From a virus (taxonomy: Duplodnaviria > Heunggongvirae > Uroviricota > Caudoviricetes), in the IMG/VR virus record IMGVR_UViG_2671180547_000013: a DNA stretch of 47,489 bases. The stretch is one strand, 5' to 3'. The notes below the pieces were generated by a model. It was not told the origin of the DNA and did no database searches. It was given only the letters and a program-made list of their open reading frames with translations. Both the position numbers and the translations under genes were made by a program. Positions within the stretch are counted from its first letter, which is position 1, and the number at the start of each line of letters is the position of its first letter. Shown here piece after piece: positions 1 through 47,489 of the stretch.

Positions 1-1236
1 CTACGATAACCGCGCATTCAACATGGCTACCTGTTCGTCGTTCATGTCATCAATCCACATACCGTAAATTTCATACACCATCTGCGCAGTTTCATGCCCC
101 ATCTGGCTGGCTATAAACGCCGGGTTCGCTCCTGCCGTCAACAGCCAGCAGGCAAAAGTATGCCGCGTATGGTACGGATTACGGCGGCGAATACCAGCAC
201 GTTTTACTGCTGCATTCCATCTCGCACCCAAACTGCTTACCGAGTAATAAGGTTTCTGTTTTCCGTTACACACTCTGGGCATGAAAACAAAATGCAGTTT
301 TTGCTTTTCGGTTCTGCCGTACTCCCGATGATAAAAAGTGATTTCGCTTTTGCGATGATGCCCGGTCAGTTTGTATTGCTCCTTCAGTGCTTCAAGAGCA
401 GGCTGCAGTAGTGTTACCGTCCGGATCCCCGCATTTGTTTTTGGGGGACCGAACATATCCAGTATCGTCAGGTTTCTTCTGACATTCACAACTCCCTTCT
501 CGAAATCCACATCCTCCCACGCCAGAGCAGCCAGTTCCCCGTGACGAAGCCCGGAGTATACGGCAAATTTCCACAAGTTCTGGCTCTGTCCTTTTTCACT
601 TTCCATTAATGCATTGAATTCTGTTTTAGATAACGGGTCAGGCTTTATTCTGTTTCTCTGTAATTTCTTTACTCCTTCAAATGGTTTGGTTGATATAAAT
701 CCCGACTGATACGCAAAACGTAACAACGAACAGAGCAGGGCGATATAGTTATCAACTGTGCGCACGGTTCTTCCTTTTTTGTTGGATCTTGGATTATCCA
801 GGTAAAGCGTTTCTCCATGCAGCAGTTCATTCCGGTAGTTTAAGATATCGCTATAACGAATATGCGATATCGGAGTACTCTCACAAATTATTATCCTGAG
901 TGTTTTTAATTGTGATTTCGTTTTCTTCATTGTGTTTGTTGTTAACTCTGTTTCTTTAATTTTTGTCCAGATATCACAAAGCTCCCCGAACGTTTTTATG
1001 ACCCTCGTTGTCACCATTTTTGCCCCAGTGCTGGACTGGGGAAAACGTCTTAAATACTCAAACTCACCGGAATTGATTTCATGAACTATCAACGCTCTTA
1101 AATTCCCGGCTTTTTTAATGTTACTGTTAGTAACCTCCCAGCCTTTCAATGTTTCCCGACATCGTTTTCCTCGAAACATGAACCAGATGCGAATGTATTT
1201 ACCTCGAATCTCGACACCTGTTGGTAATTTAGACAT
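1..1236 (-). CDS. intR: Phage integrase, tyrosine recombinase (Rac IntR-like), 411 aa
   Basis: Full ORF from track; C-terminal catalytic region HTRHTF...MGHETAQMVYEIY with HxxR and Tyr nucleophile; position at prophage end next to xis-like gene; stop codon is the first 3 nt of the window. Confidence 0.9.
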   Translation of the reverse strand: MSKLPTGVEIRGKYIRIWFMFRGKRCRETLKGWEVTNSNIKKAGNLRALIVHEINSGEFEYLRRFPQSSTGAKMVTTRVIKTFGELCDIWTKIKETELTTNTMKKTKSQLKTLRIIICESTPISHIRYSDILNYRNELLHGETLYLDNPRSNKKGRTVRTVDNYIALLCSLLRFAYQSGFISTKPFEGVKKLQRNRIKPDPLSKTEFNALMESEKGQSQNLWKFAVYSGLRHGELAALAWEDVDFEKGVVNVRRNLTILDMFGPPKTNAGIRTVTLLQPALEALKEQYKLTGHHRKSEITFYHREYGRTEKQKLHFVFMPRVCNGKQKPYYSVSSLGARWNAAVKRAGIRRRNPYHTRHTFACWLLTAGANPAFIASQMGHETAQMVYEIYGMWIDDMNDEQVAMLNARLS

Positions 1237-1237
1237 A

Positions 1238-1477
1238 TCATGAGTCTTTGATAAACTGATTTATCTTTGGATAGTTATACCAGATAATCCCTCGCTTACT
1301 GTCTGGCTTCCCTAAAGGAGATACTCGTTTGAAGTGGAAGCCTTCCACCCAACAGTTCTGGCGGTATGCTTCAATTTGTCTGGCCCCCAGACCAGTGCGA
1401 AGCATCAGGCCGTATTCAACCATCCACTCTTCATTAAAGATTACTTGTGCCATCGCATCACCTCTGGCAGGCGCCAA
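1238..1477 (-). CDS. Excisionase-like small DNA-binding protein (start may be internal ATG at 1453)
   Basis: 79-aa ORF immediately upstream of int on the same strand; size and position typical of Xis (YdaQ position in Rac). Confidence 0.6.
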
Positions 1478-1552
1478 TGTTAGACTTAAATTGACGCCCG
1501 ATGTTGATTATTAATAATCAGCTATGAAGTTTTAATTTGAATACAATGCAAT

Positions 1553-1813
1553 TCACGAGGACTGAAGTTTCTCGCAATTAAAATTTATCAGTTTTACTTT
1601 CTGCTCTCTGGAAACGCCTGCTTCTTTTTTACCTGAGAGCATTTTTTCGCATTCTGATTTCGTTAGTTTAGATTTTGAATATCTTGTCCAGTTAGTAGGA
1701 GTGCCACCTTCCTTTTCAATAGTGGCGGTAATTTTATACATGAACACCTCCATTATTATTTCCAGTGGTTCGTTTATTTCATCGTTCGAGTGCTTCTTTT
1801 TCACTTCCACCAT
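1553..1813 (-). CDS. Small hypothetical protein (YdaC-position)
   Basis: 86-aa ORF from track between xis-like gene and ralR; no recognisable motif. Confidence 0.4.
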   Translation of the reverse strand: MVEVKKKHSNDEINEPLEIIMEVFMYKITATIEKEGGTPTNWTRYSKSKLTKSECEKMLSGKKEAGVSREQKVKLINFNCEKLQSS

Positions 1814-44596: not shown

Positions 44597-44622
44597 TTAG
44601 CCAGGTAACACAGTGTTATGAC

Positions 44623-44649
44623 AGCCCGCCGGTTCAGGCGGGCTTTTTT
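44623..44649 (+). terminator. Intrinsic terminator after lom
   Basis: AGCCCGCC-GGTTCA-GGCGGGCT followed by TTTTTT. Confidence 0.7.
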
Positions 44650-44660
44650 GTGGGGTGAAT

Positions 44661-47489
44661 ATGGCAGTAAAGATTTCAGGTGTACTGAAAGACGGCACAG
44701 GAAAACCGGTACAGAACTGCACAATCCAGCTGAAAGCAAAACGTAACAGCACCACGGTGGTGGTGAACACGCTGGCCTCAGAAAATCCGGATGAAGCCGG
44801 GCGTTACAGCATGGACGTTGAGTACGGTCAGTACAGCGTTATTCTGTTGGTGGAAGGATTCCCGCCGTCACATGCCGGGACCATCACTGTGTATGAAGAT
44901 TCCCGACCCGGTACGCTGAATGATTTTCTCGGTGCCATGACGGAGGATGATGCCCGTCCGGAGGCTCTGCGCCGTTTTGAACTGATGGTGGAAGAGGTGG
45001 CGCGTAACGCGTCCGCGGTGGCACAGAACACGGCAGCCGCGAAGAAGTCAGCCAGTGATGCCGGCACATCTGCCCGTGAGGCGGCAACCCATGCGACTGA
45101 TGCTGCAGGCTCAGCGCGTGCAGCCAGCACGTCAGCCGGACAGGCCGCGACTTCGGCTCAGGAGGCGTCTTCCAGCGCAGGAACGGCATCAACAAAGGCC
45201 ACTGAAGCATCAAAAAGTGCTGCCGCTGCAGAGTCCTCAAAAAGCGCGGCGGCCACCAGTGCCGGTGCGGCGAAAACGTCAGAAACGAATGCTGCAGCGT
45301 CACAAAAATCAGCAGCCACTTCTGCATCCACTGCGACAACGAAAGCGTCAGAAGCCGCCACTTCAGCCAGAGATGCGGCGGCCTCCAAAGAGGCGGCAAA
45401 ATCATCAGAAACGAACGCCTCCACAAGCGCCAGCAGTGCAGCCTCCTCGGCAACGGCGGCAGGAAATTCCGTGAAGGCGGCAAAAACGTCCGAGACGAAT
45501 GCTAAGTCTTCTGAAACGGCAGCGGAACAGAGCGCCTCAGCTGCGGCAGACTCTGAGACAGCAGCTGCATCATCGGCCCGTGAGGCGTCCATTAAGGCAG
45601 AGGAGGCAGCAGTCAGTGCCACCGCCGCCGGAAAATCGGCAGAAAGCGCCGCATCATCCGCTTCAACAGCCACAACGAAGGCTGGCGAAGCCACTGAACA
45701 GGCCAGCGCAGCAGCGAGGTCTGCTTCCGCAGCGAAGACATCCGAAACGAACGCGAAAGCGTCGGAAACCAGCGCAGAATCCTCAAAAACGGCTGCCGCA
45801 TCGTCCGCCAGTTCGGCGGCGTCATCGGCATCATCTGCGTCTGCTTCAAAAGATGAGGCGACCAGACAGGCGTCAGCAGCGAGGGGCAGCGCCACGACGG
45901 CATCCACGAAGGCGACAGAGGCTGCTGGCAGTGCGGCAGCGGCAGCACAGAGCAAAAGTACGGCGGAATCCGCGGCAACGCGCGCCGAGACAGCAGCAAA
46001 ACGGGCAGAGGATATTGCATCCGCCGTGGCGCTTGAGGATGCGAGCACGACGAAAAAGGGGATAGTACAGCTCAGCAGTGCGACCAACAGCACTTCCGAG
46101 TCACAGGCGGCAACGCCAAAAGCCGTTAAGGCCGCGTATGACCTGGCTAACGGGAAATACACCGCACAGGACGCTACGACAGCACAAAAAGGAATTGTCC
46201 AGCTCAGTAGTGCAACCAACAGCACATCTGAAACGCTTGCTGCGACACCGAAAGCAGTGAAAGCAGCTAATGACAATGCGAATGGTCGGGTACCTTCTGC
46301 CCGTAAGGTGAATGGTAAGGCGCTTTCAGCGGATATAACACTGACGCCGAAAGATATTGGTACGCTTAACTCAACAACAATGTCATTCAGCGGTGGTGCT
46401 GGTTGGTTCAAATTAGCAACGGTAACCATGCCACAGGCGAGTTCTGTTGTTTCAATTACGTTGATTGGTGGCGCTGGATTTAACGTGGGGTCACCTCAAC
46501 AGGCAGGTATATCTGAACTTGTTTTACGTGCAGGTAATGGTAATCCGAAGGGGATTACTGGTGCTTTATGGCAGCGCACATTGACAGGGTTTACAAATTT
46601 TGCCTGGGTTAATACATCTGGTGATACTTACGATATTTACGTTGCAATCGGAAATTATGCGACTGGTGTAAATATTCAATGGGATTATACCAGTAATGCC
46701 AGCGTGACGATTCATACGTCACCAGCATATTCTGCTAATAAGCCGGAAGGGTTAACGGACGGTACAGTTTATTCACTCTATACGCCATCAGAGCAGTTTT
46801 ATCCGCCTGGCGCACCAATCCCGTGGCCATCAGATACCGTTCCGTCTGGCTATGCCCTGATGCAGGGGCAGGCTTTTGACAAATCTGCATACCCGAAACT
46901 TGCAGCGGCTTATCCGTCAGGCGTGATCCCTGATATGCGTGGCTGGACGATTAAGGGCAAACCTGCCAGTGGTCGGGCCGTATTGTCTCAGGAACAGGAC
47001 GGCATTAAATCGCATACCCACAGCGCCAGCGCATCCAGTACGGATTTGGGGACGAAAACCACATCGTCGTTTGATTACGGCACTAAATCCACGAATAACA
47101 CTGGTGCGCATACCCATAGTTTAAGTGGCAGCACGAATGCAGCTGGTAATCACAGCCATAGAGATGGCCGTCGATTTAACCCCAGTGTTTTTAAAGATAC
47201 TTATCAATATGGTTATACAAGCTCAGGTCAAAATACCTGGGGTGTACAAGGCTCAGTAGGTATGTCTACGGGGTGGTTAGCGAATACCAGTATAGATGGT
47301 AATCATAGCCATTCACTGTCCGGCACAGCAGCATCTGCAGGTGCACACGCGCATACTGTCGGTATTGGTGCTCATACGCACTCCGTTGCGATTGGTTCAC
47401 ATGGACACACCATCACCGTTAACGCTGCTGGTAACGCGGAAAACACCGTCAAAAACATCGCATTTAACTATATTGTGAGGCTTGCATAA
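44661..47489 (+). CDS. stf: Side tail fiber protein Stf, 942 aa (complete; stop is last codon of window)
   Basis: Start [24 protein letters not shown]; long Ala/Ser/Thr-rich region, tandem fiber repeats, His-rich GxHxH motifs near the C-terminus. Confidence 0.85.
46053..46310 (+). repeat. Tandem duplication of a 44-codon tail-fiber repeat unit within stf
   Basis: [34 protein letters not shown]... and [34 protein letters not shown]... encoded by diverged adjacent DNA copies about 132 nt apart. Confidence 0.7.

Follow-up and report, generated by a model that had tools for sequence, protein, structure and literature searches.

A very probably full-length, coding-complete prophage of the Rac family

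RESULTS

The window carries Rac genes in Rac order

IMG/VR record IMGVR_UViG_2671180547_000013 is a stretch of viral DNA of 47,489 bases, referred to here as the window. It starts at the stop codon of a minus-strand integrase gene and ends exactly at the stop codon of the side tail fiber gene stf. Our analysis indicates, with high confidence, that it represents a full-length, coding-complete lambdoid prophage of the known Rac family of Escherichia coli. Gene order was established by annotation transfer from strain NCTC10444 and by blastn and tblastn against the Rac prophage of E. coli K-12 (NC_000913.3, 1411899-1434958). The early genes stand in the order intR, xisR, rcbA-like/RalA, ralR, recT, recE, racC, ydaE, kilR, sieB, ydaF, and ydaG. 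They are followed by the repressor, a cro-like gene, ydaT, ydaU, ydaV, and ydaW in the middle of the element, and by Rz/Rz1, trkG, ynaK, ydaY (tail chaperone G), the tape measure gene, lom, and stf in the late part. In the RefSeq annotation of NCTC10444, the order reads intR, xisR, ralR, recT, recE, racC, ydaE, kilR, sieB, ydaF, repressor, cro-like, ydaT, ydaU, and ydaV, and continues with essD, rrrD, Rz, trkG, ynaK, terminase, portal, coat, tail genes, ydaY, tape measure, J, Lom, tail fiber, and tfaR. No tRNA gene was found in the 47,489 bases scanned, and the window contains a single run of N (250 bases, 10237-10486).

The left arm is made up as follows.

1-1236, minus strand: intR, tyrosine integrase of 411 amino acids, 100% identical to Sp10 Int and 98.8% to K-12 IntR (Pfam Arm-DNA-bind_2 and Phage_integrase)
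1238-1453, minus strand: xisR, excisionase of 71 amino acids, 100% identical to K-12 XisR (Pfam DUF1233, putative excisionase)
1553-1741, minus strand: rcbA-like DUF1187 gene, 62 amino acids (69 in K-12)
1557-1735, plus strand: RalA antitoxin small RNA, full length (Rfam RF02694, 225 bits against a gathering score of 170)
1779-1928, minus strand: ralR toxin gene with a premature stop, 49 amino acids instead of the 64 of K-12
1984-2793, minus strand: recT, full length, 98.5% identical to K-12 RecT (Pfam RecT)
2786-5386, minus strand: recE, exonuclease VIII of 866 amino acids, full length, 99.1% identical to K-12 RecE (Pfam Exonuc_VIII and a PDDEXK domain)
5488-6229, minus strand: racC, ydaE, and kilR, full length, 98.6 to 100% identical to the K-12 proteins
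6671-7159, plus strand: sieB, superinfection exclusion gene, 99.4% identical to K-12 SieB (Pfam SieB)
7156-7456, minus strand: ydaF and ydaG, 100% and 97.7% identical to K-12

The early left operon thus runs ralR-recT-recE-racC-ydaE-kilR, followed by sieB, ydaF, and ydaG, which is the order of the Rac family, and RalR is the only one of its proteins that falls short of full length. NCTC10444 is annotated with an equally short ralR, and no ralR is annotated in Sp10, the lambda-like prophage of O157:H7 Sakai. The RalA antitoxin RNA, intact according to Rfam, overlaps the truncated ralR.

The initial annotation had recognized a Rac-type prophage, and this is in good agreement with the identity of Int and Xis to their K-12 and Sp10 counterparts (98.8 to 100%) and with the K-12 order of both the left arm and the late landmarks. 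RecET and KilR, which it had listed, are indeed carried (RecT 98.5%, RecE 99.1%, KilR within 98.6 to 100% of K-12). The gene order it had given was confirmed by annotation transfer, blastn, and tblastn, except that the racR/ydaS pair gives way to the Sp10 repressor/cro allele (7623-8490) and that ralR is interrupted by a stop.

The replication genes lie to the right of the immunity region.

8497-9789, plus strand: ydaT (at the position of CII) and ydaU (DUF1376 replication protein), 99.3% and 99.6% identical to K-12 (Pfam)
9796-10488, plus strand: ydaV, DnaC-like helicase loader, whose first 147 amino acids are 99.3% identical to K-12 YdaV
10511-11704, plus strand: full-length ydaW (DUF1627, 253 amino acids) and a DUF977/Ren-like gene (Pfam; PHROG_142)

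The YdaT/YdaU/YdaV replication module of the Rac family is therefore present at 99.3 to 99.6% identity to K-12, with the C-terminal third of YdaV masked.

Near-identical copies exist in many genomes

We compared the window with 5,426 complete E. coli genomes by megablast. The first 24 kb were 99.9% identical to NCTC10444 and to several other strains, and in 95 genomes a single location covered 80% or more of the first half. Many strains matched the second half with 98 to 99% identity, and coverage of this half reached at least 80% in 677 of the 5,426 genomes. In a direct blastn comparison, NCTC10444 was 99.96% identical to window positions 1-10236 and 10487-30000, and 98.96% identical, contiguously, to 22755-46279. 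A 53-mer taken from stf had its only exact match in Shigella flexneri SFBU0723, which we rejected as the source because its stf contains indels and one additional repeat. Since near-identical copies occur in so many sequenced genomes, the window is real but ordinary.

The left arm shares 99.2% identity with Sp10, whereas the late region shares none. Judged by its sequence, the window is thus mosaic, with a left arm of the Sp10 type and a late half of the K-12 Rac type.

The attachment sites lie outside the window

The initial annotation had advised looking for the attachment (att) sites outside the window, and the NCTC10444 copy, 99.96% identical, showed where they lie in a close relative. There, int adjoins ttcA, the known attachment gene of Rac. 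An attR consisting of a copy of the ttcA 5' end was found by alignment, with 4 mismatches, between uspF and sitA. For the window, attL is predicted in the 5' end of ttcA, about 50 to 100 bp to the left of position 1, tfa immediately beyond position 47489, and an attR copy (TTGTTCAGnTTGTATTGTTCTTTCTT...) farther to the right. Similarly, the 5' end of ttcA is repeated at both ends of the Rac prophage in K-12. With tfaR and sitABCD included, the NCTC10444 prophage measures about 52.5 kb.

The sitABCD iron/manganese transporter operon sits inside the prophage of close relatives, between tfaR and attR (5366-10024 of the NCTC10444 locus compared; ON032529.1 at 27346-31592). At the position of sitABCD, K-12 carries pinR and ynaE, and a Shigella flexneri relative carries tfa and then pin.

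Excision of Rac in K-12 is driven by IntR and XisR (PMC4632033). The window encodes an identical XisR and an IntR with 98.8% identity, which speaks in favor of excision here as well.

K-12 Rac is a deletion derivative of this architecture

The initial annotation had described K-12 Rac as a deleted remnant of the architecture seen in the window. We could map this to the base. The following segments of the window were matched in K-12 by blastn.

1-7622: 98.7% identity, int to ydaG
8491-10236: 99.4%, ydaT, ydaU, and ydaV
10487-10960: 93.9%, N-terminal part of ydaW
20083-22513: 99.3%, Rz', Rz1, trkG, and ynaK
34071-35830: 99.9%, ydaY and the start of the tape measure gene
44199-46142: 94.5 to 97.7%, lom on both sides of the K-12 IS5 and the start of stf

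The late landmarks rzpR/rzoR, trkG, ynaK, ydaY, ynaA, lomR, and stfR keep their K-12 order in the window, and K-12 Rac proteins are 98 to 100% identical to those of the window over their full length, save for those truncated in K-12. Window positions 10961-20082, 22514-34070, and 35831-44198 are absent from K-12, and their absence corresponds to three simple deletions, each with a junction at 2 bp of microhomology (TA, AA, and CA). The first deletion cuts ydaW at window position 10960 and ends at 20082, within Rz.

These three deletions account for four K-12 genes, namely ydaW, ynaK, ydaY, and ynaA, which are deletion products (truncations or fusions). Indeed, K-12 ydaW encodes the first 151 residues of the 253-amino-acid DUF1627 protein, ynaK the first 86 residues of a 262-amino-acid ParB-N-domain protein, ydaY the tail chaperone G without its N terminus, and ynaA the first 312 residues of the 1,077-amino-acid tape measure.

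The RacR/YdaS pair of K-12 was not present in the window, where blastn gave no K-12 match for 7623-8490. Because immunity is a swappable module in the Rac family, the missing pair is compatible with membership. However, K-12 Rac is not a direct descendant of the window element, given its different immunity cassette and an identity of only about 94% in ydaW and stf. On these alignments, its ancestor was a sibling element equipped with another immunity module. This gives a base-resolution origin for a textbook cryptic prophage, which arose by three deletions at microhomologies, the insertion of one IS5, and an exchange of immunity. Furthermore, a coding-complete relative could give a natural context for the study of RecET, KilR, RalR/RalA, and TrkG.

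The immunity switch is that of Sp10

The region between ydaG and ydaT contains the following elements.

7623-8490: immunity cassette of the Sp10 type and not of the K-12 type, without a blastn match to K-12 and 99.2% identical to Sp10
7747-8166, minus strand: repressor of 139 amino acids, 138 of 139 identical to Sp10 ECs_1941 (HTH_3)
8246-8500, plus strand: cro-like gene, 98.8% identical to Sp10 cro
7631-7645, 8191-8205, and 8215-8229: candidate operators, ATGTACT-N5-GTTC repeats with a predicted operator role

One copy of the candidate operator lies to the left of the repressor gene, and two lie 24 bp apart between the repressor and cro genes; inverted partial copies were seen at 7654-7671. 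We consider these repeats candidate operators of an Sp10-type immunity.

A complete lambdoid phage would be expected to have a switch that responds to SOS, either through an S24 repressor or through a LexA-controlled antirepressor; we found neither arrangement in the window. Pfam detected HTH_3 alone in the repressor and no S24 peptidase domain, and the sole NCBIfam match of this protein was a subthreshold one to DicA. Furthermore, the window contains no perfect LexA box (CTGT-N8-ACAG), and no antirepressor gene was recognized in it. This is in agreement with the work of Asadulghani et al., who reported that the Sp10 repressor is devoid of the peptidase motif (PMC2669165). According to the same study, Sp10 is not inducible by mitomycin C, circular Sp10 DNA was found without treatment and at lower levels after mitomycin C, and a marked Sp10 was transferred to K-12 at low efficiency, integrating at the attR of Rac (PMC2669165).

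As the switch of the window is nearly base-for-base equal to that of an element not inducible by mitomycin C, this drug is poorly suited as a test, and one would rather expect low-level excision that occurs spontaneously. Mitomycin C is probably the wrong induction test for this prophage, and RecA-stimulated self-cleavage of the repressor is unlikely to be the trigger. The inducible, particle-forming phage predicted in the initial annotation is thus only partly supported, in view of a repressor without S24, the absence of a perfect LexA box from the window, and the behavior of Sp10, whose repressor is identical at 138 of 139 positions (PMC2669165).

Late control, lysis, head, and tail genes are uninterrupted

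The late control and lysis region comprises the following features.

15655-17083, plus strand: DUF1367 gene, YbcO nuclease, and Q-like late antiterminator (DUF1133, 180 amino acids) (Pfam)
17454-17483, plus strand: candidate late promoter downstream of the Q-like gene (consensus scan)
17511-17530, plus strand: predicted terminator, a hairpin followed by a T run (consensus scan)
17831-18017, plus strand: STnc100-family RNA (Rfam RF02076, 86.6 bits against a gathering score of 47)
19354-20527, plus strand: lysis cassette with a P21-type holin, lysozyme, Rz, and an embedded Rz1 (20283-20468), all full length in Pfam

The Q-like antiterminator matched Phage_antitermQ with 26.1 bits and is 81% identical to the Sp10 antiterminator. 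By analogy with pR'/tR' of lambda, the promoter and terminator at 17454-17530 would fit a Q-controlled late operon. Rz1 is 100% identical to K-12 RzoR. The STnc100 match lies between the Q-like gene and the first genes of the late region.

Packaging and morphogenesis genes follow downstream.

24164-31152, plus strand: TerS, TerL (25239-26540), portal (26543-27949), MuF (27933-29045), scaffold (29150-29914), and P22-type coat (30013-31152) (Pfam, PHROG)
31195-33912, plus strand: 58-amino-acid protein, Ad1, Hc1, Neck1, tail terminator, and tail tube (PHROG connector and tail families, full length)
33961-34730, plus strand: tail chaperone G (33961-34422, full-length YdaY) and the G-T fusion frame (PHROG_313, tail assembly chaperone)
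34896-43926, plus strand: tape measure (1,077 amino acids) and the M, L, K, I, and J tail-tip genes (full-length lambda-type Pfam families)
43997-47489, plus strand: lom (199 amino acids, uninterrupted) and the side tail fiber gene stf (942 amino acids) (Pfam Ail_Lom, phage_tail_N, Phage_fiber_2, and Collar)

TerL combines Terminase_6N and 6C, and the portal belongs to DUF4055 (Pfam). For lysis, packaging, head, connector, and tail, each function to be expected gave a full-length Pfam or PHROG match, and none of the translated genes of the window contains an internal stop. The chaperone G gene ends in ATA AAA AAG CCA TAG, where the -1 slippery heptamer A_AAA_AAG can be read directly at 34410-34416. 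Since the slip site is intact and no stop interrupts the -1 frame between 34416 and 34730, the G-T fusion can be made.

The reading frames that the initial annotation had called intact are so wherever sequence exists, apart from the stop in ralR and the 3' third of ydaV, which is masked by N. The terminase, portal, capsid, lysis, and nin/Q genes it had named are all present, but the head is of the P22-coat, HK639-like kind and not lambda-like. Similarly, its lambda-like tail holds for the tip (M, L, K, I, J, Lom, and Stf), to which the likeness to lambda is limited.

Cargo genes

The remaining genes occupy positions between the functional modules.

11903-13882, plus strand: low guanine-plus-cytosine (GC) cargo of two genes, encoding a 320-amino-acid HEPN-like protein and a 333-amino-acid protein (weak Pfam HEPN_RES_NTD1 and GNAT matches; GC 0.37 to 0.41)
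14503-14841, minus strand: DUF1971 (TehB N-terminal-like) gene (Pfam, NCBIfam)
18128-18556 and 18728-19102, plus strand: two paralogous lipoproteins with a TolA C-terminal domain (Pfam TolA; lipoboxes IIGC and VAGC)
20665-22122, plus strand: trkG, K+ transporter cargo gene, 99.6% identical to K-12 TrkG (Pfam TrkH)
22260-24160, plus strand: full-length YnaK (ParB_N protein, 262 amino acids), TAGT/GREB1-like glycosyltransferase (23041-23973), and a 69-amino-acid open reading frame (Pfam ParB_N, TAGT)

The two-gene cassette at 11903-13882 fills a variable slot between the replication and nin genes, and Klebsiella, Morganella, Proteus, and Pectobacterium carry copies with more than 90% identity. 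UniRef names the 320-amino-acid protein "RiboL-PSP-HEPN domain-containing," and the 333-amino-acid protein has a weak match to GNAT. Neither gene of the pair matched a defense system in PADLOC, and the sole match among the ten cargo proteins scanned was to the ParB-like N terminus of a methyltransferase model. The pair is a candidate abortive-infection or toxin cassette.

The DUF1971 gene stands isolated in a low-GC region, with 600 to 800 bp of noncoding DNA on its flanks. The genes for the TolA-domain lipoproteins are located between the Q-like gene and the holin gene. Their products could act as periplasmic TolA decoys against colicins or filamentous phages. The first of the two open reading frames is complete and present on at least 1,000 contigs. 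We thus rejected the "pseudogene" flag that the Prokaryotic Genome Annotation Pipeline (PGAP) assigns to tolA in NCTC10444 as an annotation artifact. PGAP likewise flags ynaK of NCTC10444 (28315-28572 of the locus compared; window 22260-22517) as "incomplete, missing C-terminus" and leaves the remainder unannotated, apparently because the truncated K-12 YnaK serves as naming reference. This flag was also rejected, as the open reading frame is complete.

DISCUSSION

A proposed life cycle

We propose that the DicA-like helix-turn-helix repressor would shut divergent early promoters through the ATGTACT-N5-GTTC repeats. Upon derepression, Int and Xis would excise the prophage from ttcA, and YdaU and YdaV would then replicate it. 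The DUF1133/Q-type antiterminator would read through the terminator located about 430 bp downstream, into one long late operon. This operon would provide lysis, trkG, the ParB/glycosyltransferase pair, a headful-type terminase, an HK639-like head with a P22 coat, and a siphovirus tail with a lambda-type tip.

Several observations weigh against reading the window as a complete and working prophage. Intact open reading frames are still compatible with inactivating missense changes, and the phage collection holds no virion-derived genome of the window type. Sp10 lysogens, which share the switch of the window, showed no particles by electron microscopy (PMC2669165). The proposed operators, like the late promoter and terminator, are consensus matches only. 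The att sites fall outside the window, whose first base belongs to the int stop codon, and the tail-fiber assembly gene tfa lies beyond its end. Translation of ralR ends after ...EKEALER, with a stop at codon 50. Finally, the final third of ydaV is masked by the 250 N (10237-10486), whereas K-12, NCTC10444, and Sp10 each carry 304 bases at this place, 54 more than the run. This difference is a multiple of three, and the NAA codon at 10486-10488 aligns with the TAA stop of ydaV in the relatives, so the flanks of the masked stretch give no sign of a frameshift in ydaV. The N run either does not preserve length or conceals an in-frame deletion of 18 codons in YdaV.

GenBank entries matching the window as "complete phage genomes" were considered as possible virions and rejected: the vB_EcoS-xxx records and "Salmonella phage SPF_0923" are in silico prophage predictions. 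Matching "phage" records such as ON032529.1 and ON470614.1 come from a survey of prophages in clinical isolates or include host chromosome, and the SPF_0923 record starts within Rz and continues into the host genes uspF, ompN, and ydbK. Because such records are prophage predictions, we did not count them as evidence of particle formation.

Possibly a cryptic prophage with intact frames

It is quite conceivable, though we hold it only tentatively, that the prophage is cryptic despite its intact frames. It would then be locked in lysogeny, or would excise and replicate without infectious particles, and would be kept for its cargo (trkG, RecET, SieB, the TolA-like lipoproteins, and the HEPN-like pair). 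The repressor without a peptidase domain and the window without a LexA box are what one would see in such a case, and Sp10, with an equal switch, is neither inducible by mitomycin C nor visible as particles (PMC2669165). In addition, the prophage is fixed at one locus in many genomes, decay of ralR is already under way, and the best identity to isolated phages is 75% for the coat, about 70% and no more than 72% for the tail tube, and 54% for TerL. However, had the prophage long been decaying neutrally, one would not expect about 47 kb without an insertion sequence (IS) element, a frameshift, or a truncated structural gene. The site of programmed frameshifting has been kept, the second half is conserved at 98 to 99% in 677 of the 5,426 complete genomes, and Sp10 itself was transferred to K-12 (PMC2669165).

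Possible DNA modification and assembly artifacts

In a more specific proposal, the element would be a live phage, and a module of YnaK (ParB_N) and the glycosyltransferase would glycosylate its DNA during packaging, with no TET, hydroxymethylase, or cytosine methyltransferase partner. The glycosyltransferase gene matches PF20691 (E value of 4e-34) and PHROG_842 (E value of 7.5e-104), the latter bearing the name of the T-even beta-glucosyl-HMC-alpha-glucosyltransferase. The family counts thousands of homologue clusters, for which the source names are "GREB1-related." The ynaK gene overlaps the glycosyltransferase gene, and the pair lies immediately upstream of the terminase genes. On two distant contigs (5172-6882 and 5148-6888), a gene of about 285 codons likewise overlaps the start of the transferase gene. 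ParB proteins have been linked with DNA-modification clusters near packaging genes in a published comment (PMC8256090). No TET, hydroxymethylase, or cytosine methyltransferase gene was present in the window, and overall we regard glycosylation at packaging as unlikely. If true, a temperate coliphage would carry a DNA modification not described so far, which K-12 would have lost through the second deletion. Together with the TolA-domain lipoproteins and the HEPN-like pair, the ParB/glycosyltransferase pair makes up the only part of the window with discovery potential; these leads stand outside our verdict on the prophage.

An assembly chimera, in which an Sp10-like left arm and an unrelated late region had been joined across the N run or a repeat, would fit the N run at 10237-10486 and a similarity to Sp10 that falls to about 90 to 94% to its right and is absent in the late region, but it is highly implausible, given that finished genomes contain the identical join (on either side of the gap, NCTC10444 shows 99.96% identity, and it continues into an equal late region), that a single location covers at least 80% of the first half in 95 complete genomes, and that K-12 itself links ydaV, ydaW, Rz, trkG, and ynaK.

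Comparison with known prophages and phages

The likenesses to lambda concern the overall lambdoid layout, the C-terminal domain of the tape measure, the M/L/K/I/J/Lom/Stf families, the G-T -1 frameshift, and Rz/Rz1. In contrast to lambda, the window has a head and a terminase of another type, RecET instead of Exo/Bet, and a repressor without a self-cleavage domain. Unlike in lambda, no N-type antiterminator was recognized in the window.

The head is closer to that of HK639, a plaque-forming lambdoid phage with the same order of portal, MuF, scaffold, P22-type coat, and small 58-amino-acid protein. The proteins are of nearly equal length, with identities of 69% for the portal, 50% for MuF, 65% for the scaffold, and 75% for the coat. 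The tail-tip genes of HK639 are related to those of the window at 30 to 33%. However, HK639 differs in its terminase, connector, tail tube, early region, immunity, and antitermination system (put RNA).

K-12 Rac differs from the window in that IS5 splits its lomR, in that it carries racR/ydaS where the window has an Sp10-type repressor/cro pair, and in its full-length ralR. Sp10, annotated as a lambda-like prophage at ttcA, with CP-933R as its counterpart in EDL933, is 99.2% identical to window positions 1-8917, immunity region included. In the replication and nin/Q region, identity is 90 to 94% at the DNA level over parts, and the genes are 79 to 95% identical. In contrast, the late region of Sp10 is unrelated to that of the window: it has another holin and endolysin, a lambda/HK97-style terminase, a protease-capsid head, and tRNA genes, and trkG, ynaK, and ydaY are absent from Sp10. 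For this reason, Sp10 cannot be the parent architecture of the late remnants of K-12, whereas the window type can be.

In the literature, the leftmost 8 kb of Sp10/CP-933R-type prophages are 99% identical to K-12 Rac, with replication functions retained and transfer possible (PMC2669165, PMC4632033). The window type was already known, as full-length Rac-like prophages at ttcA (Sp10 and CP-933R) were described between 2001 and 2009, and no new question is opened, since both these prophages and their odd non-SOS behavior have been published. Overall, a late region that fits the K-12 remnants better than that of Sp10 does, together with the exact deletion junctions, represents a small refinement of the known Rac family and not a new kind of element.

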